Part shown: positions 46,052-64,000 of the stretch, one piece after another | How positions within the stretch are numbered: the first letter of the stretch is position 1 | Layout: each line of letters starts with the position of its first letter | NCBI RefSeq assembly: GCF_016756745.1 | Contig: NZ_JAESIH010000059.1 | Coordinates: 2,149 to 66,148, forward strand | Reading direction: 5' to 3' | Origin: Aminivibrio sp. | GTDB lineage: Bacteria; Synergistota; Synergistia; Synergistales; Aminobacteriaceae | DNA: 64,000 bases | Notes under the pieces: generated by a model | The model's database searches: none | Told to the model about the DNA's origin: nothing | The model's input: the letters and a program-made list of their open reading frames with translations, nothing else | Position numbers and translations under genes: made by a program

Positions 46052-47412
46052 AACCCGTCAACCCCTTCGAGCAGTCCGGACAGGGCCGAATATGTCCCCT
46101 TGTCGAGGAGCAGCTCCGCATCCTCTTCGGACAGGGAGTCTATCACTTCCAGCACGTCCCGGGACGGGATTTTGTCCAGAATTCCCCGCTCCCGGAGGAT
46201 GTTTTTGAGTCCTTCCCGGAGGTCGCCGCCTTTCCGGAAGGCACGGACCTCCTTCAGGAAATCCCCCGCAAAATGGCTGCCCGCCGCGATGGAGTCGAGG
46301 TCCAGGGGAGGTGCCGTCATCCCGGAGATCTCCTCGGTGAAGACAAAATCCTCCCTGTCTTCCTCCCCTTCGTTCACCGCCTCCAGAAGTCCGCCGGGCC
46401 CCCTGAGAAACCCCGGGCGCCGGAGAAGCCCGTGGATCTTCCCCCGGCCGGAAATGGAAAGCCGCAGAAGGGCCGGACGGCCGCCGTTTTCCCGCCGCAC
46501 CGCCTCCTTCAGGTCCGACACGGCCTGGAAAAACTCCTCGTCCCGATCCATGCCGTCGATGGAAATGTCTTCGCTTCTCCACCGCACTACGTCGCAGGGG
46601 ACGAACTCTGCGCACCCCGGTTCACCGGGGGAGAGGGTGACGTAAAAAACGCCCTTTTTCCCCGTTTCCCGGATATTCCTCCCCTGGATATTCCCGGGAT
46701 AGACGACGAGAGGGTCCCTGCAGAGCACCTCCGCCCCGTGGACGTGCCCAAGGGCCCAGTAGTCCATGCCCGCCGCCCTCAAGTCGTCCAGGGAGCAGGG
46801 AGCGTAGTTTTCATGTCCCTTCCGGCCGCCCACGTTGCAGTGGAGGAGGGCGATGTTCAGACCCTCTCCCTTCCTTCCCGCGAACCGGAGGGCCATGTTC
46901 TCCTCCACGTCCCGGACGGGATAGCTGAAGCCGTGAACCATGCCGGCCGTCTCCCCTCCAAGCGCCAGGGGAACTGACTCGACTCCGGGGCCGAACCGGA
47001 AGGCCAGGGGCGGAAAATCACGGTCCGCTTCCCACCCCGACAGGGAATCGTGGTTTCCTGCGGCGATGAAGGAGGGGATCCCTCCGGCAGAAAGGCGCCC
47101 GAGCTGTTCGAGAAAGAAGACCTGGGCCCGGACGCTCCTGTCCTCGCTGTCATAGACATCGCCCGAGATCACGAAGAAATCCGCCCTGTTCTTCAGGGCG
47201 AAGGTGACGGCGTTTTCAAAAGCCCGGAAGGTCGCTTTTCGCAGGAATGCCCCGAGGGCGGGAGAGATATCGGAAAGCCCGGAAAAGGGGCTGTCGAGGT
47301 GAAGGTCCGCACAGTGAACGAAGGATATTTTTCGGCCGCTCACCGGGTCTTCCCCCTCTCCGCCGAGAGAAAAGGATACGTGTTCCGGCACACTGGGCAC
47401 CACTCCCTTCAA
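46048..47412 (-). CDS. YhaO-like Mre11/SbcD-type DNA repair nuclease
   Basis: HCADLHLDSPF, SGDVYD, GNHDS, LLHCN, WALGHVH, PGNIQGR. Confidence 0.88.
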   Translation of the reverse strand: MKGVVPSVPEHVSFSLGGEGEDPVSGRKISFVHCADLHLDSPFSGLSDISPALGAFLRKATFRAFENAVTFALKNRADFFVISGDVYDSEDRSVRAQVFFLEQLGRLSAGGIPSFIAAGNHDSLSGWEADRDFPPLAFRFGPGVESVPLALGGETAGMVHGFSYPVRDVEENMALRFAGRKGEGLNIALLHCNVGGRKGHENYAPCSLDDLRAAGMDYWALGHVHGAEVLCRDPLVVYPGNIQGRNIRETGKKGVFYVTLSPGEPGCAEFVPCDVVRWRSEDISIDGMDRDEEFFQAVSDLKEAVRRENGGRPALLRLSISGRGKIHGLLRRPGFLRGPGGLLEAVNEGEEDREDFVFTEEISGMTAPPLDLDSIAAGSHFAGDFLKEVRAFRKGGDLREGLKNILRERGILDKIPSRDVLEVIDSLSEEDAELLLDKGTYSALSGLLEGVDGL

Positions 47413-47472
47413 AAATCCCGTCTACTTTATGCCACAGTCTCCTTCTTTGCAACACAATCCCGTCCACCTAAA

Positions 47473-47506
47473 CCTAAATCCACAGGCAGCGGGGAGCGGA
47501 TTTAGG
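47473..47506. repeat. Mini element of CCTAAATCCGC family (34 bp)
   Basis: CCTAAATCCACAGGCAGCGGGGAGCGGATTTAGG between divergent genes. Confidence 0.8.
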
Positions 47507-47589
47507 CGGAGCGTCGGGGCTTGTCACCAGCCGGTGAAAATGGGATAATCCTTTGGTGATTGAATCCGATTGTGGAGGATTGTCGAGAG

Positions 47590-48603
47590 ATGAAAGGATT
47601 GGGAGCGGCCATTTCGGCCATTTCGTACTACCTTCCGCCGAAAGTGGTGGACAACAAACTCCTTGTGGAGGAGTTCGGCACGTGGACCGAAGATAAAATA
47701 TACCAGAAAACGGGGATCAGGGAACGCCACGTGGTCGACGGAGAGCTGGTGTCGGATCTGGCAGTCAGGGCGGCGGAAAAACTCTTCGAAGAACACGGCA
47801 TCGACCGGGAGACCATCGACTTCCTGCTGCTGTGCACAGAGAGCCCCGACTACTACCTTCCCGCCACCGCCTGCGTGGTACAGGATCGCCTCGGCCTGAA
47901 AAAGACCATTGGAGCCCTGGACTACAACCTGGGGTGCTCGGGCTTCATCTACGGCCTCGCTCTCTCGAAGGGGCTCATCGCCGCGGGCATAGCCTCGAGG
48001 ATCCTGCTCGTCACCGCCGACACCCTAAGCCGGACCATCAACCCGAAGGACAAGAGCACCCGCACCATCTTCGGCGACGCCGCCGCAGCCATCCTGGTGG
48101 AGGGCTCCGACACGGCCCGCATCGGCGACTTCGTCCTCGGCACCGACGGCTCGGGAATGGACAAGCTCATCATCCCCGCCGGGGCCTGGGCCGCCCCCCG
48201 CTCGCCGGAGACCGCAGCCGAACGGACCAACAAATGGGGGAACACCAGGTGCGCGGAAAACCTCTACATGAACGGCCCCGAGGTGCTCAACTTCACCATG
48301 GCCACCGTGCCCGAGGCAGTCAGCCGGACCCTGGAGGCTCACTCCCTGAAGCTCGAGGACGTGGACATCTTCGTCTTCCACCAGGCCACGTTCCTCATCC
48401 TTGAGCACCTGAGGAAGGAAATCGGCATACCGAAGGAAAAGGTCTTCATGAACATGGAGAACAAGGGCAACACGGTAAGCGCCACCATTCCCATAGCCCT
48501 GCGGGACGCCGCCGACGAAGGCAGGCTCCGCCCGGGGGACAGGGCCATGGCCGTCGGGTTCGGCGTGGGGTATTCCTGGGGGGCGACTATCATCCGATGG
48601 TAA
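47590..48603 (+). CDS. fabH: 3-oxoacyl-ACP synthase III (FabH-like)
   Basis: TGIRERH, CSGFIYGL (Cys), FGDAAAA, FHQA (His), GNTVSATIP (Asn). Confidence 0.85.
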   Translation: MKGLGAAISAISYYLPPKVVDNKLLVEEFGTWTEDKIYQKTGIRERHVVDGELVSDLAVRAAEKLFEEHGIDRETIDFLLLCTESPDYYLPATACVVQDRLGLKKTIGALDYNLGCSGFIYGLALSKGLIAAGIASRILLVTADTLSRTINPKDKSTRTIFGDAAAAILVEGSDTARIGDFVLGTDGSGMDKLIIPAGAWAAPRSPETAAERTNKWGNTRCAENLYMNGPEVLNFTMATVPEAVSRTLEAHSLKLEDVDIFVFHQATFLILEHLRKEIGIPKEKVFMNMENKGNTVSATIPIALRDAADEGRLRPGDRAMAVGFGVGYSWGATIIRW

Positions 48604-48904
48604 GTCAAGCACCTCTGTTTTCCTGAAAAACATGATCGACTGGGCCGGGCGGTCTACCGCGACGTCAGGCCGAATCCCACAGACTCCATGGTCATGTGGG
48701 GGCGCCGGGATCTACGAGGACGAAGGCTGCGGACGTCTCCCGGTTCTCCCATAATCCAGAAACGAGTGAACCGGCATCAAGCACAGCCGACTGCGATACT
48801 GTCCCCGAGCGGTTCGGCGGCGGAAGCCTGCATAAGACTGTTAAAGGGAGGGTTTACCCTCGACGACCGACGACGAGCGGTTTTACAACAAAAGATGAAA
48901 AAAT

Positions 48905-48930
48905 TCCGGGGGCCCGTCAGGGCCCCCGGA
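48905..48930. terminator. Intrinsic terminator downstream of the STAS gene
   Basis: TCCGGGGGCCC-GTCA-GGGCCCCCGGA, T-rich tail on the minus strand. Confidence 0.75.
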
Positions 48931-48934
48931 CGCT

Positions 48935-49243
48935 TTACTGTTGGGACACGTTGAACACGAGGTCGAGGCGGGTAAGCCGGAAGAGCTCTTCGACCATTCC
49001 GCGAAGGCCGGTGATGACCATCTTCCCGCCCTTCTGGAGGCATCTCTTGTGAATGGAGATCAGGACCCCGAGCCCCGAGCTGTCCACGTAGTCCAGGCCC
49101 GAAAGGTCGATGGTCAGGTTGATTATCCCTTCTTCAAGAAGCCCGATGAGCTGCTCCCTCACGGACGCGGAATCTTCGACGTACATGCTGCCGCCCAGAC
49201 GTATCCGCGCCCCGGAGCCGCTTTTGCTAATATCCACTTTCAT
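48935..49243 (-). CDS. STAS-domain anti-sigma factor antagonist
   Basis: DLSGLDYVDSSGLGVL, FRLTRL. Confidence 0.88.
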   Translation of the reverse strand: MKVDISKSGSGARIRLGGSMYVEDSASVREQLIGLLEEGIINLTIDLSGLDYVDSSGLGVLISIHKRCLQKGGKMVITGLRGMVEELFRLTRLDLVFNVSQQ

Positions 49244-49288
49244 GGTGCATCCTCCTTCTCCATGGACAAACTTCGGAAAGCAAGCCGA

Positions 49289-51424
49289 TTATACGACGGC
49301 AGGCTTATTTGACAAAACCCCGCCGTCTTTTTCAATCTTGAAGCGCTCCGTCATGCGCCGCATGTCCTCGGAAGTCTCGCTCACTTCCTGGGCGCTCGTG
49401 GCCACGGTCTCCATGGCGGCCGCCGTCTCCTCCATGGAGGCCGCGAGGGTCTGCACATGGTCGTCGGTGAGCTCCATGACGCTGGCGGTGGTGTCGATAA
49501 GGGAGATCACCTTGTCGGACTTGGCCACTTCCTCGTCGGTGGTGGAAATGATCCTCCTTATATCCTCCACGGATCTCCCGATGGCCTTGCCGATCCGCTC
49601 CAGGGCTTCTCCCGCCACGTGGGCGATAGACACTCCTTCCTCAACGCCTTCCCGGCTTTTCTGCATGGACGCCACGGCGGACCTGGTCCCCTCGAGAATC
49701 CTGGCCACGAGTTCCGCCACTTCCCTGGCTCCCTGCTGGGACTGTTCCGCCAGTTTCCGGACTTCCTCGGCCACCACGGCGAATCCTCTTCCGGCCTCCC
49801 CAGCCCGAGCCGCCTCTATGGCGGCGTTGAGGGCGAGAAGGTTGGTCTGGTCGGCGATGCCGGTGATGGTGTCGCCCACCACGCCTATCCGGGCGGAAAA
49901 AGTGTCGAGCTGCGACAGGAGACCCTCCGTCTCCTCCACGGAGGTGCGGATGTTTTCCATGTGCTCCACGGTCTGGGCGACTGTTTCCCGTCCCTCCTCG
50001 GCCGCCCCCGACATCTCGGCGGAGTTTTTGTCGGCGCTTGCCGCAAGGCTCTGGGCAATCTGAATGAGACTGCTCATCTCGAGCATGACCTTGGACGCCT
50101 CAATTGAGTTCTCCCTCCCCCTCCTGGTCTGCTCGGCCAGTTGGGCGTTGCCCTCGGCCACCTCGTTGGTGGTGCTCGTGACCTCTTCGGTGGAGGCCGC
50201 CGTCTCCTCGGAGAGGGCCGACAGGTGGACCGACTTTCCCTTCAACTCCCGGACCATCTCCCGCTGCCCCCGGACCATGTCCGCCAGGGCATCAGCCATG
50301 AGCCCCAGCTCGTCCCTGGTGACGATCTGGAAATCCTCCCGTTCGATGGACAGATCCCCTTCCTTCGCCATCCCGGCGAGGACGGTCACCCTGTTCAGGG
50401 GACGGGTCAGGCTCCGTGTCATGGCGAATGCGATGGCCGCGCCGAGCAGCACCGCTGCGGCGGTGGAAAGAAGAATGACGGAAATGGTGGAAGCGAGGCT
50501 GTCCACGGCGTGGTCGGAGATCTTCTGGGAATTGGCCGCTCCGGCCTGCACAACCTGGTCAGCCATGGCAAGAATGCCCCTCCCCGTCTCGACTCTCCGG
50601 GCGTTGAGTTCTTCGAGGCTTCTCCAGGCCGTCAGGACCCCAGCCATCACGGATCGGTAATCCGCTCCGGCTTTCTCCACGGCCTTTATCTGCTCGATAT
50701 TCACCCTCTGGAACGTCATGGCCTTCAGACGCTCAAGGATCGACTCCATTTCCTCGAAATGCTGGAGCCCCTCTTCGAGGAGCACGGGATTTCTCTGGGC
50801 CTGTCCTCTGTAGTTGGCCAACCGCACAAGGTTTCCCAGATCGATGAGTGCGTTTCCGAGAACAATCTTCTGCAGCCGTCCCGAAAGCTCCGACTGGAGG
50901 GTGCTCTCCCCGAACTCCCTCTCAAGGGTCTGTTCCTGGGAGCGGACGTAGTTCTCCGCATTTTCGAAAAATGCCCTCTCGCTGTCGGTTCCCCTGTTCC
51001 TGAGGGCATTCATGGACTCCACGGCCTTCTCGGTATCGTCCATGAGCTTCACGTACTCGTCGAGCCCTGCCATGGCATCGGCGGCGCCCGCCCTGAGGGT
51101 GACCAGGGCCGGATACTTCTCCGCGAGGGCCGCCGCATCCCCCAGGGCGGCCCGGGCACTTTCCGCGGCACTGCGGCCCGCGTCGAGGAACGAACGGTCG
51201 TAGGTGTAGCTGTAGCCCCGTATTTCGTACATGAGATCCTGTACTGTGCTCTGAATCCTCTCCGCAAGCACCATTTCCGGAACATATTCGTCAGCAAGGG
51301 AACGGACTTCCCGGCTCACCTCCCCCATGTTGAACCAGCTCAGCGCCCCCACTCCGGAAAATATGAGCAGCAGGACGCCGAAGGCCAGAGCGAGCTTCGC
51401 CCCGATCTTTAAATTCCTGAACAT
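49289..51424 (-). CDS. Methyl-accepting chemotaxis protein
   Basis: TM, long periplasmic helical domain, TM, HAMP (DELGLMA), [38 protein letters not shown]. Confidence 0.92.
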
Positions 51425-51544
51425 TCTCTCACACCTCTTTTCTTGAAAATATGTACCGAAAAAACACGCCTTCAGGGCGTTCCCGCGCCCCGGGAACATG
51501 GCGCCCCTGCGGACGGGAAGAAGCCACCGTTTTATTACCCGCGC

Positions 51545-51976
51545 TCACTTCATCTTCATCGTGACCGGATCTCCCGTTCTCACTTCTCCGCCCCGGATCA
51601 CCCGGAGAAAGTACCCCGCCGTGGGCAGAAGGCACCAGCCCCGGTAATCGTAGCTGTGGGGCTCCCCCGGTTTCTTGCCTTTCTCGATGACTTCCAGAAG
51701 CACAGAATCCCCAACCTTGAGGACCGTTCCGACGGGCAACTCTTCGGGGAGCCCTTCCACCACGAGGTTCTCGGCGAGGGATCCCGGTGGAAAGGCAAAA
51801 CCAGCCTCTTCTTCCGCCTTCCGGATATCCTCGGCCCGAAGCAGGCTCACTTCACGCTCCGTTACACCCCTGTGGGAGTCGCCCTTGATTCCTCCCGGAA
51901 GGAACAGGGCCCGCTCCACCTCCGTTTTCGGTTTCCGCCGTTCAGTGCTCAGGCAGACGGCCGTCACTGCCGCCAT
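51545..51976 (-). CDS. MOSC-domain protein
   Basis: GIKGDSH, REVSLL, AENLVV, RVIRGGEVRTGD. Confidence 0.8.
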   Translation of the reverse strand: MAAVTAVCLSTERRKPKTEVERALFLPGGIKGDSHRGVTEREVSLLRAEDIRKAEEEAGFAFPPGSLAENLVVEGLPEELPVGTVLKVGDSVLLEVIEKGKKPGEPHSYDYRGWCLLPTAGYFLRVIRGGEVRTGDPVTMKMK

Positions 51977-52066
51977 GGATCTCACTCCCCACCAATACGT
52001 TATATGATGAAAAAAACAGTTCTATAATACGATAGACGGCAAAAAAAGGCGAGGCCACTCACCTAG

Positions 52067-52345
52067 CCTAAATCCGTAGTTTTTCCTGGCGGAGGGGGTG
52101 TCACCGGGCATGAGGCGGATTCGCCCAGCCGGGGGCGAAGAGATCTCGCTCCGCGCTCTTTGCGGAGGGATTCCATTGGGGGACGGCGCAGGGGCGGTAA
52201 ACCGGCACGGATGCCGGTTTCACAGGCAGGCATCCGGCGAACGCTGGGAGCCGCGATGATCGCCTGGGCAGCTGTCATGGAGACAATCCGCGCCCCCCGC
52301 ACCAAGCGAGCGCCGGCGACGCTCCACGTTGCCTGCGGATTTAGG
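52067..52345 (+). mobile_element. Full-length MITE-like element (279 bp), non-coding, with internal hairpins
   Basis: TIRs CCTAAATCCG / CGGATTTAGG; hairpins 52120-52139, 52149-52167, 52199-52220. Confidence 0.8.
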
Positions 52346-52358
52346 CCTCAGGCGAATA

Positions 52359-52544
52359 TCAGGATCCAACGTCGTCCAGGGGGGATTCCATTGGGGGCAT
52401 TCCCCTGGACAGAATTTCGTAACCGTAAACTTTTCCCTCGGCGACGTCCAGAATGGGCTGGAACACCGGGAGAATCCCCCCTTTTTCGAGAAGTTTCCCC
52501 AAAAACAGACCATAGGATTTTTCCTGCACGATGAAAGATCTCAT
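52359..52544 (-). pseudogene. EAL-domain phosphodiesterase relic (N-terminus fused to LDDVGS motif)
   Basis: PVFQPILD...YGYEILSRG...ESP joined to LDDVGS*YS; RBS retained; ends 13 bp from the MITE right end. Confidence 0.75.
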
Positions 52545-52614
52545 TTACGTTCTCCCTCCCGCTTTGTCTGCAGGAACTTTAGCACCGCAACGCAACTTCC
52601 GGGTAAACGTTCTG

Positions 52615-52769
52615 TGCACTTTTCATGGCCTTCCTGGCGGTCTACCTCGGGCTTTCCCAGCATGTCTCCGGCCTCGGCATCACCCTGCTCTCCACCGGGC
52701 TGGCCATGTTCATCTACCGGCTCAGCGTGGGATCCCCCGTGAACCCCCCCACGGTACAGCCTTTCACCC
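52615..52769 (+). repeat. Exact 155-bp copy of 58380-58534 (internal to ABC permease gene)
   Basis: Base-by-base comparison from TGCACTTTTCATGG to CCTTTCACCC found no mismatch. Confidence 0.92.
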
Positions 52770-52776
52770 GTGTTCT

Positions 52777-54111
52777 TCAGGCCATCCGCGGCAGAAGCAC
52801 CGGAAGGACTTCCTTTTCCTCTCCGCTCCCCCTTGGGGTGACGGAGAAGTCAACGCGCCGCTTCTTCCCGCCCCAGGTCAAGGTCCGCTGCGCCGGGGCC
52901 GTCTCGGCGATGACAGAGCCGTTCCGCACCGACCACAGGCACTCGCTCTGGAGCCGGATCGCATCGAACCGGTCAGAGGCGTCGAGGACCAGGAGATTCG
53001 CAGGCTTTCCCGGTTCGATGCCGTAGCGCTCCTGCACGTTCATGGTCCGGGCGGAATTGACTGTGATCATGTCGAAAAGACGTAAAATCCGGCTGTAGCC
53101 GCTCATGTGGGCCGTGTGGAGCAGGAGGTTCGCCGCAGCGAGCATGGATCCCTTTCCCATGGGGTACCAGGGGTCCATGATGGAGTCATGGCCGATACAG
53201 ACGTTCAGCCCGGCTGCGTCCAGCTCGTCCACCCGGGTGTGTCCCCTGCGGCGGGGGTAACCGTCCGTCCGGTTCTGGAGCACCGAATTGTCGAAGGGAA
53301 GGGTGATGAAATTCATCTTCGCCCGCCGGAAAATGCCCATGAGCTTCAGGGCGTAGTCGTTGTTGTAATTGTGCATGGCCGTGGTATGGCTCGCTGTCGC
53401 CCGGGGCCCCATGCCGGTGGCGATGGCGCATTTGGCCATGACCTCGACAAACCGGGACTGGTCGTCCCCCGTCTCGTCGCAGTGGATGTCCACAAGCCGG
53501 CCGTACTTCTCCGCCAGCTCGAAGGCCAGCTCCACGGACCGGACGCCGTCCTCCCGGGTCAGTTCGTTGTGGGGTATGGCACCGACGCAGTCGCATCCCA
53601 TCTCCACGGCACGGCGAAGATTTCTCTCGCCGTCGGGGATGGTGTAGATGCCGTCCTGGGGAAAAGCCACCACCTGGATGTCGGTGATCTCCCGCATCTC
53701 GTCCTTCAGTTCCAGCAAGGCCTCTACCGTGACCAGGGAGGGGTCGGTGGTGTCGGCGTGGGTCCTGATGAACTGCACGCCGTTGGCAGCCTCCCAGAGG
53801 ACGGCTTCCCTGGCGTTCCGGAGAATCTCTTCCTTTGTGACTCCGGGGCGGCGCTCGCCCCAGATGGCGATGCCCTCGAGGAGAGTGCCCGAGGCATTGT
53901 ACCGGGGCGATCCCACGGTAAGGACCGCGTCGAGGTGGAGGTGAGGGTCGGCGAAGGGAGGTACAACCAGCCTGCCGCCCGCGTCGATCTCCTTGGCCGC
54001 TCCGAAGTCCAGCCGCTTCTCCACGGCGGCGAACACCCCGCCGTTGATGCCGATGTCCGCGATTTCTCCGTCTGCAAGCCGTGCCCTGCGAATAATCAGG
54101 TCCATGGTCAT
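52777..54111 (-). CDS. codA: Cytosine deaminase (bacterial CodA type), Ser at the Asp314-equivalent position
   Basis: PHLHLD, VAFPQDG, IHCDE, TASHT, GHDSIMDPWYPMG. Confidence 0.88.
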   Translation of the reverse strand: MTMDLIIRRARLADGEIADIGINGGVFAAVEKRLDFGAAKEIDAGGRLVVPPFADPHLHLDAVLTVGSPRYNASGTLLEGIAIWGERRPGVTKEEILRNAREAVLWEAANGVQFIRTHADTTDPSLVTVEALLELKDEMREITDIQVVAFPQDGIYTIPDGERNLRRAVEMGCDCVGAIPHNELTREDGVRSVELAFELAEKYGRLVDIHCDETGDDQSRFVEVMAKCAIATGMGPRATASHTTAMHNYNNDYALKLMGIFRRAKMNFITLPFDNSVLQNRTDGYPRRRGHTRVDELDAAGLNVCIGHDSIMDPWYPMGKGSMLAAANLLLHTAHMSGYSRILRLFDMITVNSARTMNVQERYGIEPGKPANLLVLDASDRFDAIRLQSECLWSVRNGSVIAETAPAQRTLTWGGKKRRVDFSVTPRGSGEEKEVLPVLLPRMA

Positions 54112-54434
54112 TTCCCCTCTTTTCATATTTATGCCACCGGTTGCACATTTTAACATAAAGGGGGCCCGGTGTCCATGGCTGACAAAAATTTCCGGAATTC
54201 TCGTTACATCTCACCATTGACACGGGTTGAAGGCAACCGTTTAATGATGTAAATGGGCATTTCGTCGGCACATTTCTGATAAAATAAGATACAATCCTTA
54301 TCCTGCACCGGAACGAACGGGGAGGTGAGCCGGAAAAGTCAGTCCGCCGGGAAAGGGTGCGTCCGAACGGCAGTTTGGGGAAGCGTCCGCGGCACTTGCG
54401 GCCGCTGCTACCGAGACCAGGGAGGTGTTATCTT

Positions 54435-55427
54435 TTGAGGAAAAACGTATTGGCGTTGTCGATGGTATTTGTCCTTCTCCTCGCCGGAACCGCGTCGGCG
54501 GAGGCAAAGGAATACAAGGACTTCAAGCTGGCCGCCGTATTCCAGACGGCCATCGAGGAACCCTGGGACGGGGCGATCCACCAGGCCTGCATCCTTCTGC
54601 AGAAGGAACTCGGCTTCACGTACGAATTCACAGAGAAGGTGGGAGCGGCGGACTTCGAGCGGGTTCTCAGGGAGTACGCCGAGAGAGGCTTCGACCTCAT
54701 CGTGGGAGACGCTTTCCTGGCAGGGGAGGAGCCTTCCCGCAGGGTCGCGAAAGATTACCCGGAAGTCGCCTTCGCCTTCGGGTCAGAGTTCACCTTCCAG
54801 GAACCAAACTACTCCGTGTTCGACAACTGGATTCATGAACCTTCCTACCTCTGCGGCGTCATCGCAGGCCGCATGACAAAAACCAACACCCTCGGCATCG
54901 TCGCCGCCATTCCCATCGCGGAAGTCAACCGTCTCGTCCACGCCTTCAAGCTAGGTGCCCTTTCGGTCAACCCCAGCGTCAAGGTGAAGGTCGCCTACAT
55001 CGGAAGCTGGTTCGATCCCCCCAAGGCCAAGGAAGCGACCCTCGCCCAGATCGAGGCGGGAGCCGATCTGATTTTCGCCGAACGGTTCGGCGTGTTCGAG
55101 GCGGCCAAGGAGAAGGGGGTCCTCGCCTTCGGCAACATGATGGACCAGCATGCCCTCGCGCCCGAGGTAGTCGTCACGGGACCGGTGTGGAACATGGAAC
55201 CCACTGTCCGCCATTGCATCGACACCGTGAGAAACAAGGAATGGAAGGCCGAAGACCTGAGGGAGTGGTCCATGTTGGCCCGGGGCGGCGCATATCTCGC
55301 TCCCTTCCACGAGTTCCAGCAGAAACTTCCTCCAGAAGTGATCAGGGAAGTCCGGGAACTGGAATCGAAGATCATGAACGGCCAGTTCACCGTGCCCATC
55401 ATCGAGACCGAGCTGAAGACGGACTGA
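54435..55427 (+). CDS. BMP-family (nucleoside/purine) ABC transporter substrate-binding protein
   Basis: Signal peptide; YLCGVIAGRMTKTN, GSWFDPPKAKEA; TTG start after GGAGG. Confidence 0.88.
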   Translation: MRKNVLALSMVFVLLLAGTASAEAKEYKDFKLAAVFQTAIEEPWDGAIHQACILLQKELGFTYEFTEKVGAADFERVLREYAERGFDLIVGDAFLAGEEPSRRVAKDYPEVAFAFGSEFTFQEPNYSVFDNWIHEPSYLCGVIAGRMTKTNTLGIVAAIPIAEVNRLVHAFKLGALSVNPSVKVKVAYIGSWFDPPKAKEATLAQIEAGADLIFAERFGVFEAAKEKGVLAFGNMMDQHALAPEVVVTGPVWNMEPTVRHCIDTVRNKEWKAEDLREWSMLARGGAYLAPFHEFQQKLPPEVIREVRELESKIMNGQFTVPIIETELKTD

Positions 55428-55520
55428 TTGCCGCTCCGGGGGCGGGCCCTCCTGCCCGCCCCTTTCGTCTTTATCCTTTATTCTCAGTGTATTCGCAGCT
55501 ACCCGAAAGGGGTGGATACA

Positions 55521-57095
55521 ATGCCTACTGACAGGCCTGCCATGAGCGCCGTACAGGGGGAAGTGCCGGTCTCCGGGCACACAGCCCCTCCCTGCGTCGT
55601 GGAAATGCGCTCCATTACCAAGACATTTCTCGACGTCACGGCAAACAGCGACGTGAACTTTTCGCTCAGGGAAGGGGAAATCTGCGCTCTTCTCGGAGAG
55701 AACGGCGCCGGTAAGACCACGCTCATGAACATTCTCTTCGGCTATTACGCCGCCGACAGCGGAGAAATCCGCATCGGGGGGGAAAAAGTTACCTTTTCCT
55801 CCCCCAGGGACGCCATCGCCTGCCGCATCGGCATGGTCCACCAGCACTTCACCCTGGTGCCGTCCCAGACCGTGCTTGAAAACGTGGTGGTGGGAAGCGG
55901 CGGAGGGAGATTCTTTCTCGATCTTTCCGGTGCGCGGAAAAAACTGCTCACCCTTCAGGACCGTTTCGGACTCCACGTGGACCCCGACGCCCCGGTATGG
56001 ACCCTCCCCATAGGCGGGCAGCAAAAGGTGGAGATTCTGAAGGCTCTCTACAGGGACGCCCGCATCCTGATCCTCGACGAACCCACGGCGGTGCTCGCTC
56101 CCTTGGAAACCAAGGAGCTTTTCGCGACCCTTCGCACCCTCGCAGCGGAGGGCTGCTCCATAATCTTCATCTCCCACAAGCTCTATGAGGTTATGGAAAT
56201 CGCCGACCGCGTGGTGGTGCTCACGAAGGGAGTACTCACCGCCGAGAGGAAGGTCTCCGAGACCAGCGAACGGGAGCTGGCCAAACTCATGGTGGGCCGG
56301 GAACTCGCGGAGAAGAAGCGTCCTGCCAGGGGAACCCCGGGAAGCCCTCTTCTGGTCGTCCGGGGCCTGACAGTGAAGAACGACAGGAACCTCGAGGCAG
56401 TAAAGGATCTCTCCCTGGAGGTCCGCTCCGGAGAGATCCTGGGCATGGCCGGGGTTTCCGGCAACGGGCAGAGAGAGCTCGCGGAAGCCCTGTTCGGCCT
56501 CCGGAAGCCCGTTTCGGGCACCATCTCCGTGGACGGCAGAATCCTTCCCCCGGGCCGCCCGAAAGCTTCGGTGGACAGCGGCATGGGGAGAATACCCGAG
56601 GACAGGATGACTACCGGCCTCCTCCTGGAGCTTTCCGTGGAGGAAAACCTCGTGCTGGAAAACCACGGGAAATTCCGCTCCATGGGTATGCTGGATCACG
56701 GCGCCATTGGGCGGCACGCCGACCGGCTCATTTCCGAATTCAACATCAGGACCGACGGCAGGACGGCCAAGGCCCTGACGCTTTCGGGAGGAAACCTCCA
56801 GAAGATCATCCTGGCCCGGGCGCTTTCGGCGTCGCCGAAAGTGGTGGTGGCTGCCCAGCCCACCAGGGGACTCGACGTGGGGGCCATCGAATACATCCAC
56901 TGGCGGATCGTGGATGCCAGGGCAGGCGGCGCGGCAATTCTTCTCATCTCCGAGGATCTCGACGAAATATTCGGACTCAGCGACCGGATCGCCGTCATGT
57001 ACGAAGGCCGCATCATGGGCATAGCCGACGGCGGCTCAGCGTCCAGGGAGCGGATAGGACTCTGGATGAGCGGGGTGAACGAACCATGCGTATGA
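55521..57095 (+). CDS. Nucleoside ABC transporter ATPase (tandem NBD)
   Basis: GENGAGKT, GMVHQHF, LILDEPT, LSGGNLQK, QPTRGLD. Confidence 0.9.
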   Translation: MPTDRPAMSAVQGEVPVSGHTAPPCVVEMRSITKTFLDVTANSDVNFSLREGEICALLGENGAGKTTLMNILFGYYAADSGEIRIGGEKVTFSSPRDAIACRIGMVHQHFTLVPSQTVLENVVVGSGGGRFFLDLSGARKKLLTLQDRFGLHVDPDAPVWTLPIGGQQKVEILKALYRDARILILDEPTAVLAPLETKELFATLRTLAAEGCSIIFISHKLYEVMEIADRVVVLTKGVLTAERKVSETSERELAKLMVGRELAEKKRPARGTPGSPLLVVRGLTVKNDRNLEAVKDLSLEVRSGEILGMAGVSGNGQRELAEALFGLRKPVSGTISVDGRILPPGRPKASVDSGMGRIPEDRMTTGLLLELSVEENLVLENHGKFRSMGMLDHGAIGRHADRLISEFNIRTDGRTAKALTLSGGNLQKIILARALSASPKVVVAAQPTRGLDVGAIEYIHWRIVDARAGGAAILLISEDLDEIFGLSDRIAVMYEGRIMGIADGGSASRERIGLWMSGVNEPCV

Positions 57096-58144
57096 TCATC
57101 ACGAAACGGGCCCCCCTTCCCGGGTGGGTCCAGGCGCTTGTCCCCGTGGCAGCCATCCTGGTGACCCTCATCCTTTCGGCCGTTCCCATTCTCATCGCCG
57201 GAGGGGACCTCTGGCTCTCCTACACGTCTCTCTTCAGGGGAGCCTTGGGCACCAGGTACAACTTCCTCGAGACCTGCGTGAAGGCCGCTCCTCTGACCTT
57301 TACCGGTCTGGCCGTGGCCTTCGCCTTCCGGGCGAAGTTCTGGAACATCGGCGCCGAAGGACAGCTTCTCGCCGGGGCCATCGCCGCCACCTGGGTGGGC
57401 ATAAACGCCCCGGCTCTTCCGAAGGCTGCCGTGCTGGTCCTCGTCTGCGCTGCGGGCTTTCTCGCCGGGGGCCTCTGGGCCACCGTCCCCGCCCTGATGA
57501 AGACGAAATACAGGGTGGATGACGTGGTCACCACCCTTCTTCTGAACTACGTCATGTGGCACATTATGGGATACCTGCTCTTCGGCCCCCTCCAGATGCC
57601 GAACTCGAGCTGGCCGAGGTCGCCCGCCATAGCGGAACTGGCCAGGTTCCCCGTGCTCCTGGCCCGCTCCCGGTTCCACCTCGGCATCGTGCTTGCGGTC
57701 GCTGCGGTCCTCATCGTCTGGTTCATCAACTCGAAGACCGTCTTCGGCTATCAGTCCCGGGCGGTGGGCGTCAACCCCAGGGCGGCGGCCTTCGGGGGCA
57801 TCGACGTCAACTCCGTGATCATCAGGACCGCCGTCCTTTCCGGAGGGCTCGCGGGAATGGCGGGCGTGGGTGAAGTGGCCGCCATTCACTTCCATCTCCT
57901 CATGGACGTCTCGCCGGGATTCGGGTACTCGGGCATCGTCATCGCCATGCTGGGGAGGCTTCATCCCCTGGGGACGGCCCTCGCGGCCTTCTTCTTCAGC
58001 GTGATTATCGTGGGAGCCCAGTCCATGAGCAGGCTCACCGGCGTCCCGACCTACATCGCCGAGGTGATCCAGGGCATGGCCCTCATCGTGATGCTCATCG
58101 CCCTCCTCCTCACCGAATACCGCATAAAGGCGGTGAAAGACTGA
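57086..58144 (+). CDS. Nucleoside ABC transporter permease
   Basis: FWNIGAEGQ, AVGVNPRAAAFGGI, GFGYSGIVIA. Confidence 0.9.
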   Translation: MRMIITKRAPLPGWVQALVPVAAILVTLILSAVPILIAGGDLWLSYTSLFRGALGTRYNFLETCVKAAPLTFTGLAVAFAFRAKFWNIGAEGQLLAGAIAATWVGINAPALPKAAVLVLVCAAGFLAGGLWATVPALMKTKYRVDDVVTTLLLNYVMWHIMGYLLFGPLQMPNSSWPRSPAIAELARFPVLLARSRFHLGIVLAVAAVLIVWFINSKTVFGYQSRAVGVNPRAAAFGGIDVNSVIIRTAVLSGGLAGMAGVGEVAAIHFHLLMDVSPGFGYSGIVIAMLGRLHPLGTALAAFFFSVIIVGAQSMSRLTGVPTYIAEVIQGMALIVMLIALLLTEYRIKAVKD

Positions 58145-59088
58145 TGGAACAGGTATTCACCCTCTCCTTCATCACCGGCCTCCTCGCCGCCATGATGCGC
58201 ATGGCTACCCCCATCATCTTCGGCACCCTTGGGGAAATTCTCAGCGAGCGGGCAGGCGTCCTCAACCTGGGCATCGAGGGAATTATGCTCATGGGCGCCA
58301 TGACGGGCTTCCTCACCACCCTCGCCACCGGATCCCTCTGGCTCGGCGTGGCAGCGGCCGCACTGATCGGCGCTCTCCTTGCACTTTTCATGGCCTTCCT
58401 GGCGGTCTACCTCGGGCTTTCCCAGCATGTCTCCGGCCTCGGCATCACCCTGCTCTCCACCGGGCTGGCCATGTTCATCTACCGGCTCAGCGTGGGATCC
58501 CCCGTGAACCCCCCCACGGTACAGCCTTTCACCCAGACGGCCATTCCGTACCTGTCGGAGCTGCCGGTTGTCGGTCCCGCTTTTTTCACTCAGTACACCT
58601 TGGTCTACTGGGCGTTTCTTCTCATCCCGGCCCTCTGGATCCTTCTTTACAGGACGACCTGGGGCCTGGCCATCCGCACCGTGGGTGAAAACCCCCTCGC
58701 TGCCGATACAGTGGGCATCAACGTCAACCTCGTCCGGACCCTCTGCCTGGCGGCAGGAGGGGCCCTCATGGGCATCGGAGGCGCTTTCCTTACCCTCGCC
58801 CACCAGAACATGTTCCTCATCGATGTGGTGGGAGGCAGGGGATGGATCAGCATCGCCATGGTCATCTTCGGCAATTGGGATCCCCTCCGGGGAGCGGCGG
58901 GCGCCCTCATCTTCGGCTTCCTCGACGCCCTGCAGCTCCGCCTCCAGGGGCTGGGCTTCGACATTCCCTTCCACCTGTTTCTTCTCATCCCCTACCTGAT
59001 GACGGTCGTCGCCCTTGTCAGCGTGTCGCGGAGAGCCGCGGCCCCGGCAGGGCTTCTAAAGCCCTACCGACGGGAAGAAAAAGGCTAG
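58144..59088 (+). CDS. Nucleoside ABC transporter permease
   Basis: SERAGVLNLGIEG, GENPLAADTVGI, GRGWISIA, PYLMT. Confidence 0.9.
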   Translation: MEQVFTLSFITGLLAAMMRMATPIIFGTLGEILSERAGVLNLGIEGIMLMGAMTGFLTTLATGSLWLGVAAAALIGALLALFMAFLAVYLGLSQHVSGLGITLLSTGLAMFIYRLSVGSPVNPPTVQPFTQTAIPYLSELPVVGPAFFTQYTLVYWAFLLIPALWILLYRTTWGLAIRTVGENPLAADTVGINVNLVRTLCLAAGGALMGIGGAFLTLAHQNMFLIDVVGGRGWISIAMVIFGNWDPLRGAAGALIFGFLDALQLRLQGLGFDIPFHLFLLIPYLMTVVALVSVSRRAAAPAGLLKPYRREEKG

Positions 59089-59140
59089 AGACTTTCTCCC
59101 CGGGGAGAAAGAGTACTATCGACAGACAGGAGAGTGCAGC

Positions 59141-61468
59141 ATGACACAGCGATATGTCGGAAAGAGCGTCCAGAGAGTGGATGCGGTGAAAAAAGCGACC
59201 GGCGAGGCTTGTTTCGTGGCCGACATTACCCTTCCCCGGATGCTCCGCGCCAAAGTCGTCCGGGCGGGCATCCCCCACGGGAAAATCCTTTCCATCGACA
59301 CGTCGGTCGCGGAAACAATGCCCGGAGTGAAGAAGGTCGTCACGGGGCAGGGATGCTCCATGTTGTTCGGCACCTGCCTCTGGGATCAGCCGCCCCTGGC
59401 GGTGGACAAGGTTCGCCATGCCGGCGAACCGGTAGCGGTGGTGCTGGCGGAGACGGAGAACCAGGCCGAAGCGGCGGCGAAGGCGGTGAAGATCGAATAC
59501 GAAAAACTGCCCTTCGTCCTCGACCCAGTGGAGGCCGCTGCACCCGGAGCTCCCCTGATCCATGAAAAGAACGGCTCCTACCGCAGGGTGGAGTACGTGG
59601 TCCATCCCGTTCCCGGAACCAACATCTTCCACCACTACAAGCTCCGCAAGGGGGAGAGCGAAAAAGGCTTCGCCGAAGCGGATGTCACCGTGGAAGACGA
59701 GTTCGAATTCCCCATCTCGAGTCATGCCGCCATCGAACCCCACGGGGCGGTGTGCAGGTTCGGCGCTGACGGGAGTATAGAGATCTGGGCCTCAAACCAG
59801 GCCCCCTTCGTCCTCCGGGACGTGCTGGCCGACATGTTCAAAATCCCTTCCTCGAAGGTTCGGGTCCACATCCCCTACCTCGGGGGCGGCTTCGGCGGCA
59901 AGTCCGACGTCTCCATCGAACCCATGGTGGCCTATGCGGCCGGCTTTGTCCCGGGATACGCCGTGAAACTCGTTCTCACCAGGAAGGAGGACATCATGGG
60001 TTCCCTGGCGGGGCGGGGCATGAAGGGGAAGATGAAGATCGGGGCGAAGAAGGACGGCACCCTCACGGCGCTGAAGGCAGAGATGTACTTCGCCGACGGG
60101 GCCTACGGCGACACCGGATGGCCCGTGGATACCGTGGCAGGACACAACTGCACCGGCCCCTACGAGTTCCCCCACGTCACGGTGGACGTGTACGGGATGT
60201 ACACCAACACCCCCAACGTGGGAGCCTACCGGGGATACGGCCACCCCGAAGGGCAGTTCATGTCGAGCCGCCTCCTGGACATGCTGGCCCGGAAGCTCGG
60301 CATGACTCCGGGCGAACTCATGCGGAAGAACTTCCTGTCCGAAGGGCGGCAGAACGCCCTAGGCCAGGTGATAAAAAAGAGCCACGGTGATCTTCCGGGA
60401 TGCCTCGCCGCCGTGGAGAAGGCCCTGGATCAAACACCCCTCCCGGAGAACGACAACCGGTACCTCTACGGCAGGGGCATCGCCTCCATGATGAAATCCC
60501 CCAAGATGTCCTCCAACGCGGCCTCCACCTGCACCGTCCAGATCAACGCCGACGGCTGCGCCTTCGTGAACCTTTCGGGGATCGAGATGGGGCAGGGAGT
60601 CCAGACCGTATTCGCCCAGATGGCGGCGGAGGCCCTTCAGATCCCCTTCGAGAAGGTGAAGACCTACTCGGAGGTGGACACCCAGTTCTCCCCATGGGAG
60701 TGGCAGACCGTGGCCTCCATGCAGACCTACAGGGGCGGCCGGGCCATACAGGACGCCTGCGGGCAGATCATCGCCATCGCCAAGGAAACGGCGGCGATGG
60801 CATGGAACTGCTCCCCGTCCCTGATAGTCTACAGGGACGGGGAATGCGTCCATCCCAATACGGGCGAGACTCTTTCCCTGGCGAACCTGGCCAGGGGATA
60901 CATGGCCCCCGACTGCCTTACCATAGGGGCTCCCCTGGCAGCCACGGGCTGGTACCGGGTTCCCGGGCTCGTGGAGCCCGACCCGGAAACGGGCATGGGC
61001 AACGCCGCAGGAAGCTGGACCTTCGGAAGCCAGGGCTGCACCCTCAGGGTGGACCGGCAGACCGGGGAAGTGAAGATCCTTCATTTTGCCTCGGCCTTCG
61101 ACGTGGGGAAGGCCGTCAATCCAACCACCGCAAGGGGCCAGGTCACAGGCGGTGTGGTCCAGGGTATGGGGGCTGCCCTCATGGAGAAAATTCTCTTTAC
61201 CGACGACGGCGTGGCGAAGAACGTCAACTTCCCGGCCTACAAAATACCGAGGCTGAAGGACGCCCCGGAGAAACAGACCGTGGAGCTGCTGGAGACACCC
61301 AACCCCGAGGGCCCATGGAGCGCCAAGCCCATGGCGGAACACCCCATCGTGGCGGTGGCCCCGGTGATCCTCAACGCCCTCCGGGACGCTACGGGAGTGG
61401 AATTCACATCTCTTCCGGTGACACCGGACAAAATACTCGAAGCCCTCAGGGCAAAGGAGGCCCGGTAA
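59141..61468 (+). CDS. Xanthine dehydrogenase-family molybdopterin-binding subunit
   Basis: WASNQ, GGGFGGK, AYRGYG, EMGQG, DVGKAVNP, GQVTGGVVQG, KPMAE. Confidence 0.9.
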   Translation: MTQRYVGKSVQRVDAVKKATGEACFVADITLPRMLRAKVVRAGIPHGKILSIDTSVAETMPGVKKVVTGQGCSMLFGTCLWDQPPLAVDKVRHAGEPVAVVLAETENQAEAAAKAVKIEYEKLPFVLDPVEAAAPGAPLIHEKNGSYRRVEYVVHPVPGTNIFHHYKLRKGESEKGFAEADVTVEDEFEFPISSHAAIEPHGAVCRFGADGSIEIWASNQAPFVLRDVLADMFKIPSSKVRVHIPYLGGGFGGKSDVSIEPMVAYAAGFVPGYAVKLVLTRKEDIMGSLAGRGMKGKMKIGAKKDGTLTALKAEMYFADGAYGDTGWPVDTVAGHNCTGPYEFPHVTVDVYGMYTNTPNVGAYRGYGHPEGQFMSSRLLDMLARKLGMTPGELMRKNFLSEGRQNALGQVIKKSHGDLPGCLAAVEKALDQTPLPENDNRYLYGRGIASMMKSPKMSSNAASTCTVQINADGCAFVNLSGIEMGQGVQTVFAQMAAEALQIPFEKVKTYSEVDTQFSPWEWQTVASMQTYRGGRAIQDACGQIIAIAKETAAMAWNCSPSLIVYRDGECVHPNTGETLSLANLARGYMAPDCLTIGAPLAATGWYRVPGLVEPDPETGMGNAAGSWTFGSQGCTLRVDRQTGEVKILHFASAFDVGKAVNPTTARGQVTGGVVQGMGAALMEKILFTDDGVAKNVNFPAYKIPRLKDAPEKQTVELLETPNPEGPWSAKPMAEHPIVAVAPVILNALRDATGVEFTSLPVTPDKILEALRAKEAR

Positions 61469-61469
61469 C

Positions 61470-61940
61470 ATGCCTGTCCTCAACTTCACCGTCAACGGCA
61501 TTCCCAGGACCGTCCATCTCGAGGAAGGGAGGGTCATGCTCTCCTCCGTGCTCCGGGACTGTCTCGGCCTCACGGGAACCAAGGTCGGCTGCGGCACGGG
61601 GCAGTGCGGTTCCTGTACGGTGGTCATGAACGGCAGTGCGGTGACAAGCTGCACCGTTCCGGCGGAAAAGTGCGAGGGCTCCGAAGTGCTCACCATCGAG
61701 GCTCTTGCCGAAGGCGGCGTGCTTCATCCCATCCAGCAGGCCTTCGTGGACGCGGGAGCGATCCAGTGCGGCTTCTGCACCCCCGGCCTCATCATGAGGC
61801 TGTACGCCCTTCTCACTGCGAATCCGGAGGCCGGCGACGAGATCCTGGAAGCGGAGATCAACAAACACCTCTGCCGCTGCACCGGCTACGAGACGATCCT
61901 CGCCGCAGCCCGGCTTGCGCGGGAAAGAATGACGAAATAA
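61470..61940 (+). CDS. 2x[2Fe-2S] small subunit (XdhC/CoxS-like)
   Basis: GCGTGQCGSC...SC, QCGFCTPG, CRCTGY. Confidence 0.92.
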   Translation: MPVLNFTVNGIPRTVHLEEGRVMLSSVLRDCLGLTGTKVGCGTGQCGSCTVVMNGSAVTSCTVPAEKCEGSEVLTIEALAEGGVLHPIQQAFVDAGAIQCGFCTPGLIMRLYALLTANPEAGDEILEAEINKHLCRCTGYETILAAARLARERMTK

Positions 61941-61986
61941 CGGGAGGGGGCTCCGTCTCTTCCCGAAAAGAAAGGAGAATGAATCC

Positions 61987-63195
61987 ATGGCTTTCAGTCT
62001 TCTGGTCAAAAACGCGCGGACCCGCTTCTCCGGCGGAAAGCTTCTTTCCATCGGCATCGAGGGCGAAAAAATCGCCGCTCTGGGGGAAAACCTTCCCGAG
62101 GGTGGAGCGGCGCAGGTCATCGACGCCGAAGGCAGGCTCGTCACCGAGTCCTTCGTGAACGGCCATCTTCATCTCTGCAAAGTCTACACCCTCGAGATGG
62201 TGGGCCAGGACGCCCTTTCCTCCTACCACGGCGGCTCCATGGGAGGCGCCATGACGGCCATCGAGCAGGCCTCCAGGGTGAAGGACAATTACGATGAAAA
62301 ATGGATCATCGAAAACGTCCGGAAGGCCTGCCGCCTCGCCCGGAAGTACGGCAACACCCACATCCGCGCCTTCGCCGACACGGACACCAAGGCCAAGCTC
62401 GAGGGCGTCAAGGCCCTGATCAAGGCCCGGGAGGAATTCAAGGACATCGTGGACCTCCAGGTGGTGGCCTTCCCCCAGGACGGCGTGGTACGCGACCCCG
62501 GCGCCGAAGATTACATCAGGAAGGCCATGGAGCTGGGAGCGGACGTGGTGGGCGGCATTCCCTGGATCGAGTACACCGATGCCGATATGCAGGAACATAT
62601 CGACAGGATGTTCGCCCTGGCAAAGGAGTTCAACAGGGACGTCTCCATGCTCATCGACGATGCCGGCGACCCGGGTCTCAGGTCCCTGGAGATGCTGGCG
62701 GTGAAGACGCTGAAGGAAGGCTGGCAGGGGCGGGTCACCGCCCAGCACTGCAGGGCCATGGCCATGTACCGGGAGCCCTACTTCCGCAAGATCCTGGCCC
62801 TGCTCAGGAAAGCCTCCATCGGCCTGGTGAGCGATCCCCAGACAGGCCCGCTCCACGCCCGGGTCCGGGACCTCTACGACGCAGGCGTGGCCGTCGCCCT
62901 TGGTCAGGACGACATCGCCGACGCCTACTACCCTTTCGGCAGGAACAACATGCTGGAAGTGGCCTTCCTGGCGGTCCACCTGCTGTGGATGACCACCTTC
63001 AGCGACATGGAGATCATCTACGACCTTATCACCACCAACGCGGCAAAGGCCATGGGCATCAGGGGACACGTCCTCGAGCCCGGCGGGAACGCCGACCTGG
63101 TGGTGCTGAACGCCAACGACGTCTACCACGCCATCTGGGAACACGAAGCCCCCTTCAGGGTCATCAGGAAGGGAAAGGACGTCACCCTGAAATAA
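61987..63195 (+). CDS. CodA/AtzC-like amidohydrolase with atypical metal/catalytic residues
   Basis: NGHLHL, VAFPQDG, SMLIDD (in place of HCDE), AQHC, GQDDIADAYYPFG. Confidence 0.8.
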   Translation: MAFSLLVKNARTRFSGGKLLSIGIEGEKIAALGENLPEGGAAQVIDAEGRLVTESFVNGHLHLCKVYTLEMVGQDALSSYHGGSMGGAMTAIEQASRVKDNYDEKWIIENVRKACRLARKYGNTHIRAFADTDTKAKLEGVKALIKAREEFKDIVDLQVVAFPQDGVVRDPGAEDYIRKAMELGADVVGGIPWIEYTDADMQEHIDRMFALAKEFNRDVSMLIDDAGDPGLRSLEMLAVKTLKEGWQGRVTAQHCRAMAMYREPYFRKILALLRKASIGLVSDPQTGPLHARVRDLYDAGVAVALGQDDIADAYYPFGRNNMLEVAFLAVHLLWMTTFSDMEIIYDLITTNAAKAMGIRGHVLEPGGNADLVVLNANDVYHAIWEHEAPFRVIRKGKDVTLK

Positions 63196-63553
63196 CCCTC
63201 CGAAGCACGGCATGCCCCTCCTGCCGGAGGGACATGCCTTTCCTGAACCCAAGGAACCTCCGAATAATGTCGATGAATGTGTCAAAAAAACAGATTCTAT
63301 CGGGTCCCGTGAGGACAAATTATTTTTTTCATAACTTCCCTGAATAAACGAAACGGTCACTTCCTTCAGGTCTTTCTCCTCCAGGGTGCCGGCATTTCAC
63401 CGGTTGCGCCGCCAGATGTTTTCAGGCCATCCGGAAGCAGCGAAACAGGCGCATCAATCGTCCTTTTCCTTCATAACCCCGTCAGGAGCCTTCCTGGAAT
63501 GAATGGTATAATTTGATTACACTGCTCCACACATAAATCGGGAGGAATATTGC

Positions 63554-64000
63554 ATGCCATCACTCAGGGGAACGAAAACAGAAGAGAACCTCATGAAAGC
63601 CTTCGCAGGCGAGTCGCAGGCGCGGAACAGGTACAGTTACGCCTCCTCCGCGGCAAAAAAGGAAGGATACGTGCAGATTTCCAACATCTTCGCCGAGACG
63701 GCTGAAAACGAGAAAGAGCATGCGAAGCTCTTCCTCAAGTTCCTTGTCAATGACGTCAACGGCAGCATGGTGACCATACACGCCGACTATCCCGTGGGCT
63801 TCGGCGACACGAAGGAAAACCTCCTCGCCGCCGCAGAGGGGGAGCACGAGGAGTGGGGGACGCTGTATCCCGAATTTGCGAAAATCGCCGAAGAAGAAGG
63901 TTTCAGGGAAGTAGCCCGGGTTTTCCGCGAGGTGGCCGAGGTGGAAGAACGGCATGAGAAACGGTACCGGAAGCTCCATGCCAACCTGACCGCCGGAACG
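63554..64000 (+). CDS. rbr: Rubrerythrin (partial, runs off the window)
   Basis: My translation (not in the ORF track): [27 protein letters not shown]...ENEKEHAK...EGEHEE...EERHE; GGAGG RBS. Confidence 0.9.

Follow-up and report, generated by a model that had tools for sequence, protein, structure and literature searches.

A CodA-type amidohydrolase of Aminivibrio sp. from a clade with serine opposite Asp314 of E. coli CodA

The codA gene described here encodes P0001, which is probably an active mononuclear-metal (Fe/Zn) general cytosine deaminase of the Ser-314 clade, fed by an importer and tolerant of substituents at C5 of the ring. The evidence comes from the window, that is, the whole 64,000-nt stretch of DNA that was analysed, from the source genome and from related loci. 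The gene and the signal predicted upstream of it are as follows.

52777..54111, minus strand: codA-type cytosine deaminase CDS, P0001, 444 aa (ORF plus PDB, NCBIfam, Pfam and fold matches)
54147..54175, minus strand: sigma-70-like promoter match ahead of codA, between it and the divergent genes (TGGACA and TG-TAAAAT with a 17 nt spacer; consensus match only)

Gene boundaries and flanking sequence

The ORF translation from the ATG at 54111 yields the 444 aa of P0001. A second ATG at 54105, two codons in (MDLII...), coincides with the start position of close homologues, and translation probably begins at one of these two codons. At the opposite end, residues ~425-444 (...GEEKEVLPVLLPRMA; window 52777-52840, minus strand) form a C-terminal tail of ~20 aa. 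This tail is found only in relatives at 88-93% identity; more distant homologues stop near residue 425. It has a pLDDT of <50 in the AF2 model. The tail is specific to this lineage.

The scan upstream of codA found one sigma-70-like site, with 0.5 expected by shuffling, and no terminator-like site was found downstream of the gene. An Rfam scan of 45000-64000 gave two sub-threshold matches only, both taken as chance, and no riboswitch in the divergent intergenic region. One of the two, a THF riboswitch match inside the 3' end of codA, reached 23.5 bits, with a gathering score of 36.

The DNA behind codA resembles the scar of a rearrangement. A 155-nt direct repeat with identical copies occupies 52615-52769 and 58380-58534, meaning that a piece of the second permease gene of the neighbouring importer has been copied to a site immediately behind the stop codon of codA. 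If the two copies recombined, 5765 bp would be lost, with codA, the genes for the binding protein, the ATPase and permease 1, and a portion of the permease 2 gene. Such a deletion route fits the patchy occurrence of codA, which is accessory and present in 8 of 41 relatives and in 5 of the 10 genomes of the genus. Further downstream lie a short ORF at 52400-52560 (minus strand) resembling the truncated N-terminus of an EAL domain (…PVFQPILDVAEGKVYGYEILSRG…), a repeat element at ~52067-52345 and a MOSC-domain gene at 51545-51985 (minus strand).

Family and fold

In a phmmer search of the PDB, the best match of P0001 was Kpn00632 of Klebsiella (4r7w/4r85/4r88; E 6e-122), and wild-type E. coli CodA (1k6w) was found at E 2e-121. 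The engineered CodA variant D314S (1r9z/1rak) was also matched, as were the D314A and D314G mutants. Judged by these E-values (~1e-122), the relationship to CodA is one of homology and not of chance. The next family was AtzC (N-isopropylammelide isopropylaminohydrolase; 2QT3, 4CQB), a member of the same superfamily branch with E ~1e-48 and a TM-score of ~0.77. Membership of P0001 in AtzC was rejected, as the identity is ~30% and the match is far weaker than that to CodA.

P0001 exceeds the cut-offs of two NCBIfam models named "cytosine deaminase", NF006685 (497.3 bits, cut-off 483) and NF005748 (496.2 bits, cut-off 438), and contains the Pfam domains Amidohydro_3 and Amidohydro_1. The AF2 model, built from an input alignment of 53 homologues and compared at fold level, has a mean pLDDT of 84.4 and a pTM of 0.86, with low confidence in two loops and in the last ~20 residues. 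In a Foldseek search against the PDB, E. coli CodA and its mutants rank first with TM-scores of 0.87-0.92 (1k6w: 0.88/0.92), and then Kpn00632 in complex with phosphonocytosine or 5-fluorocytosine (4r7w/4r88; 0.84-0.90). By family score, residue set and the predicted (beta/alpha)8 barrel/beta-sandwich fold, P0001 is a CodA-type amidohydrolase.

E. coli CodA (1K6W, 3O7U) shares with P0001 the (beta/alpha)8 fold, ~45% identity, identical metal and catalytic residues and the same NCBIfam models. The two enzymes differ in the pocket, with Asp314/Phe316 in CodA and Ser310/Met312 in P0001, and lie on different major tree branches. Furthermore, E. coli codA is partnered by codB, whereas the gene of P0001 adjoins a BMP-type ABC importer and encodes the 20-aa C-terminal tail.

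The discriminator position and the catalytic residues

The following residues were located within the gene.

53155..53193, minus strand: motif GHDSIMDPWYPMG with the metal-binding Asp309 (CodA D313), Ser310 (D314) and Met312 (F316) (translation, phmmer, MAFFT)
53182..53184, minus strand: codon of Ser310, which aligns with the 5-substituent discriminator Asp314 of E. coli CodA (translation, phmmer, MAFFT)
53473..53484, minus strand: HCDE block with His210 (H214, metal ligand) and Glu213 (E217, proton shuttle) (MAFFT, alignment A1)
53935..53943, minus strand: HxH metal ligands His57/His59 (H61/H63) (MAFFT; invariant in alignment A1)

The P0001 motif aligns with that of E. coli CodA (GHDDVFDPWYPLG) without gaps, so Ser310 occupies the Asp314 position, and MAFFT likewise sets Ser310 opposite D314. 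With residues counted along the 1k6w chain in literature numbering, CodA D313/D314 correspond to D309/S310 of P0001. The gapless phmmer motifs read ghdsimdpwypmg in P0001, ghddvfdpwyplg in 1k6w, ghdsvfdpwyplg in the D314S variant 1r9z and aqdsiqdpwyplg in Kpn00632 (4r7w), the characterised 5-methylcytosine (5mC) deaminase. The initial annotation had placed a Ser at this position against an E. coli motif; the placement is borne out, and the motif given there agrees with the 1k6w sequence.

The same annotation had described the other catalytic residues as intact, which is correct: all seven residues (H61/H63/Q156/H214/E217/H246/D313 in CodA, H57/H59/Q152/H210/E213/H242/D309 in P0001) are conserved in the MAFFT alignment and invariant across the 53 homologues of alignment A1. 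A second change in the pocket, absent from the initial annotation, concerns Phe316 of CodA, which is Met312 in P0001 and Gln in Kpn00632. In the 53-homologue alignment, Ile311 and Met312 are conserved together with Ser310 across the Ser clade.

The rule for this position is said to go back to Hitchcock and co-workers in 2014, who reportedly showed that natural non-Asp CodA homologues deaminate 5mC and 5-fluorocytosine (5-FC). Changes at D314 in the E. coli background reportedly reduce cytosine activity, as found by Mahan and co-workers in 2004. According to two publications, Asp314 blocks 5mC, the D-to-A mutant of CodA gains 5mC activity, and the Klebsiella 5mC deaminase Kpn00632 carries Ser at this position (PMC6186785, PMC9081823); to that extent, these sources back the earlier statement that the Asp314 equivalent is a barrier to 5-substituted cytosines. 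D314A CodA has been described as an improved 5-FC selection marker (PMC4283509). By its Ser310, P0001 is to be counted among the non-Asp CodA homologues that the published rule treats as 5mC-competent.

The engineered CodA variants (D314S 1R9Z, D314A 1R9Y, D314G 1R9X) offer a direct comparison, as the GHDS tetrapeptide of D314S is identical to that of P0001. The mutants show that loss of Asp314 moves the preference towards 5-substituted cytosines. These are laboratory point changes in the E. coli scaffold, whereas the Ser of P0001 is native. Kpn00632 (4R7W, 4R85, 4R88), besides being the best sequence match in the PDB and having Ser at the discriminator position, shares V152, F154, L282 and W319 with P0001 in the MAFFT alignment and gives TM-scores of 0.84/0.90. 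It differs in reading AQDSIQ in place of GHDSIM; His312 is kept, while position 316 is Gln and not Met. Klebsiella has a normal CodA besides Kpn00632, whereas the Ser-type enzyme is the only CodA in the source genome of P0001.

Distribution and origin of Ser at position 314

The motif was matched by 116 of the 121 cluster representatives closest to P0001 (64-93% identity), with Ser in 114 and Asn in two. Every codA copy found among relatives within the order reads GHDS. In a scan with one genome per species, 80 loci at 51-91% identity carried Ser (55), Asp (18) or Asn (7) at position 314. The wider family is more varied, as those 50%-identity cluster representatives in which every catalytic residue is retained have Asn in 12 cases, Cys in eight, Ser in five, Asp in three and Val in one.

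A maximum-likelihood tree was calculated from the 80 loci, E. coli CodA, Kpn00632 and Cys-type outgroups, with Rsp0341 and NCgl0075 lying outside this sampling. P0001 falls into a 77-row clade comprising Synergistota, Spirochaetota, Bacillota, Thermodesulfobacteriota, Planctomycetota and Chloroflexota. The ground state of this clade is Ser, and the whole tree has seven state changes. Asp is secondary within the clade, with GNDD in Tissierella and GSDD in a subclade of the Oscillospiraceae. E. coli CodA lies on a separate branch together with other Asp-type sequences. Kpn00632 is nested there, so its Ser and that of P0001 are of independent origin, and P0001 stands outside the subclade of the characterised 5mC deaminase. 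A smaller, earlier tree gave the same picture. No characterised member of this Ser clade was found in the PDB or in the searchable literature.

Since Ser is the ground state, "Asp314-to-Ser" describes a contrast with E. coli and not an event in the P0001 gene. The framing of the residue as a notable substitution is therefore not supported, and within the clade Asp is the derived state.

One gut Eubacterium MAG (MGYG-HGUT-04481; contigs L086 and L090) contains two types of CodA, one with Asp (GSDD) and one with Ser (GHDS...WYS), with CodB, LacI and PreA-like neighbours beside the Ser-type copy only. This two-copy state may reflect a natural division of labour between the Asp and Ser types.

Tissierellaceae and allies (L082, L076, L077, L080, L087, L053, L083) form a further well-supported CodA subclade with the motif GND[DN]IMDPF[GA]P and loss of Trp319-Tyr320. 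This motif is a candidate creatinine-deaminase signature, because the subclade includes the creatinine fermenter Tissierella creatinophila.

The importer and the neighbourhoods of Ser-type genes

Opposite codA, the following genes form a divergently transcribed ABC importer.

54357..55427, plus strand: BMP/PnrA-family substrate-binding protein, first gene of the importer (PF02608)
55428..59088, plus strand: remaining importer components, an ABC ATPase (two ABC_tran domains) and a pair of BPD_transp_2 permeases (domain matches; conserved synteny)

The only NCBIfam match of the binding protein is a weak one of 81 bits to a putative B6 binder (cut-off 400). By analogy with related loci, the importer is likely the uptake partner of codA. 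In the Synergistaceae this partner is the BMP-type importer, arranged divergently at 54357-59088 and in L003 and L017-L023, and co-directionally in L007.

All 80 loci were screened with a panel of neighbour proteins. A CodB-like permease was present in 33 of the 55 Ser-type loci and a BMP-type ABC importer in 13, with one or the other in 46. In 25 of the 55, a LacI regulator and a PreA-like gene (DHO_dh + 4Fe-4S) are located immediately downstream. Ser-type codA lies directly behind a CodB-like NCS1 permease in Desulfovibrio, Thermanaerosceptrum, another Bacillota genome and a spirochaete. In Spirochaetota loci, BMP-ABC and codA are co-directional and are joined by the LacI and PreA-like genes. 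The neighbourhoods of Ser-type genes are a context of pyrimidine uptake and utilisation.

A second cluster was observed on contig C56 (minus strand), at the window equivalent of 65794-69466, which is 1.8-5.5 kb past the window end. It is of the hydantoinase type and, with functions taken from N-terminal sequences only, encodes a D-aminoacylase-like amidohydrolase of 530 aa, a hydantoin-racemase-like protein of 223 aa and a dihydropyrimidinase/hydantoinase-like protein of 460 aa. A rubrerythrin gene lies at 63554-64138.

These surroundings bear on the idea that P0001 deaminates creatinine to N-methylhydantoin, an activity of some CodA-family enzymes. Like many of the organisms that carry genes of the clade, the source organism is an anaerobe that ferments amino acids, and the hydantoinase/racemase/amidohydrolase cluster, ~3-6 kb past the operon, would suit such a pathway. 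CodA of C. glutamicum with the NCS1 permease CrnT has been linked to creatinine use (PMC8864220), and NCS1 permease neighbours alone cannot separate cytosine from creatinine. The idea is nevertheless very improbable, as Ser-type genes have LacI and a dihydropyrimidine dehydrogenase of the PreA-like kind for neighbours, a setting indicative of pyrimidines, and P0001 keeps the full CodA substrate-binding set. Moreover, the homologue in Tissierella creatinophila (L082, 54% identity), which we take to be the creatinine deaminase of that organism, reads GNDDIMDPFAPLG, with Asp at 314 and without the Trp-Tyr pair. L082 belongs to the separate, well-supported subclade of the maximum-likelihood tree described above, and P0001 has neither its signature nor its placement.

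The downstream Mo-hydroxylase module

Behind the importer lies a separable module, all genes of which score below the NCBIfam equivalog cut-offs.

59141..63195, plus strand: separable downstream module of three genes
59141-61468, plus strand: large subunit of an XDH-family Mo-hydroxylase, 775 aa (best equivalog XdhA, 483 bits, cut-off 780)
61470-61940, plus strand: 2Fe-2S subunit, 156 aa (domain match)
61987-63195, plus strand: second CodA-like amidohydrolase, P0122, 36% identical to CodA (below all NCBIfam cut-offs)

No FAD subunit is encoded near the Mo-hydroxylase genes at 59141-61940, and the genome contains five further paralogues of the hydroxylase. P0122 keeps the HxH motif, Gln, His246 and Asp-Asp (GQDDIADAYYPFG), with Leu in place of the metal ligand His214 and Asp in place of Glu217 (MLIDDAGD). 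P0122 is assigned to a distinct uncharacterised subfamily, because this HHQ-L-D-H signature recurs in at least nine of the 50%-cluster representatives.

P0001 could be envisaged as catalysing the first step of an uncharacterised pathway for N-heterocycles, for which the divergent operon would supply the importer, Mo-hydroxylase, 2Fe-2S protein and second amidohydrolase. For instance, cytosine or 5mC would be converted via uracil or thymine to a hydroxylated barbiturate-type product followed by ring opening, or isoguanine or another amino-heterocycle would be deaminated before hydroxylation. E. coli CodA reportedly deaminates isoguanine, as attributed to Hitchcock and co-workers in 2011. The divergent arrangement is kept in the closest Synergistaceae (the locus itself, L003, L017, L020 and L091), and neither the Mo-hydroxylase nor P0122 matches any equivalog model. 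Such a pathway is unlikely, however, as codA and BMP-ABC occur without the hydroxylase in L007, L018, G001, G003, G014 and G039, and G016 has the hydroxylase but no codA. Spirochaete loci carry BMP-ABC and codA with LacI and PreA-like genes instead.

The four genomes G001, G003, G014 and G039 have codA without any orthologue of the hydroxylase. An obligatory coupling of codA and the Mo-hydroxylase was rejected, since presence and absence of the two separate across relatives. The module is a neighbour of codA, and a partnership with it is only possible, and then in the closest Synergistaceae only.

Proposed function and substrate range

The assembly of 2.94 Mb is 100% complete. It contains one full CodA, P0001, besides the 36%-identical paralogue P0122, and no other enzyme for cytosine was found in the genome inventory. 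A tblastn search of the source genome revealed no CodB permease. Upp, a pyrimidine-nucleoside phosphorylase and two C5 DNA methyltransferases are encoded; the first two would make both uracil and thymine salvageable.

As a general cytosine deaminase, P0001 would, by homology, work in the manner of E. coli CodA. His57, His59, His210 and Asp309 would hold the metal-bound water, and Gln152 would bind the carbonyl/N3 edge of the substrate. Glu213 and His242 would shuttle protons, and attack at C4 would release ammonia. Ser310 in place of the bulky, charged Asp beside C5 of the substrate, together with Met312 in place of Phe316, would leave room for a small 5-substituent, and 5-substituted cytosines should therefore fit. 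The predicted reactions are the conversion of cytosine to uracil, of 5mC to thymine, and of 5-FC to 5-fluorouracil. Substrates would most likely enter through the divergently transcribed BMP-type ABC transporter in place of the missing CodB, and the products could be salvaged by Upp (uracil) and the pyrimidine-nucleoside phosphorylase (thymine) or could supply nitrogen to the cell.

Tolerance of 5mC and 5-FC is likely by analogy with other non-Asp enzymes. Because the Ser of Kpn00632 arose separately, transferring its substrate range to P0001 rests on one residue and on the mutant data. The proposal of a candidate 5mC deaminase is fair with regard to 5mC and 5-FC competence under the Asp314 rule, but it does not extend to the modified-pyrimidine role attached to it.

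In the fuller form of that role, 5mC or 5hmC from degraded DNA would be the physiological substrate and cytosine a minor one. The Ser that P0001 shares with Kpn00632 at the discriminator position (PMC6186785, PMC9081823) speaks for it, as do the two C5 DNA methyltransferases and the pyrimidine-nucleoside phosphorylase, so that thymine would be salvageable. A dedicated salvage role is nonetheless unlikely, and we give it little credence, because P0001 is the sole complete CodA of a genome with nothing else for cytosine and its orthologues in most other lineages form classical codB-codA pairs. Free 5mC is far scarcer than cytosine, and Ser as ground state of the clade marks no specialisation. 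The neighbours (a CodB-type permease or BMP-ABC with LacI and PreA-like genes) equally argue against the purpose assigned to the gene.

A broader scenario goes well beyond general cytosine deamination, and we consider it a long shot. The Ser-314 clade, and not the E. coli Asp type, would be the main cytosine deaminase of anaerobes, with all members being efficient 5mC and 5-FC deaminases. In the closest Synergistaceae, the enzyme would have been recruited with the ABC importer, the orphan Mo-hydroxylase and the His214-less CodA paralogue into an oxygen-independent oxidative route that degrades cytosine or 5mC to barbiturate-like intermediates by way of uracil or thymine.

Significance

P0001 is an ordinary application of the discriminator rule known since 2014 and, taken by itself, matters very little. 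The survey adds that Ser is usual and Asp the exception among close anaerobe relatives of six or more phyla. Many "cytosine deaminase" genes of gut, sediment and digester anaerobes may thus turn 5-methylcytosine into thymine, and the same genes may convert the antifungal prodrug 5-fluorocytosine into 5-fluorouracil. The annotation of thousands of genes could be calibrated by one kinetic study of the Ser clade.
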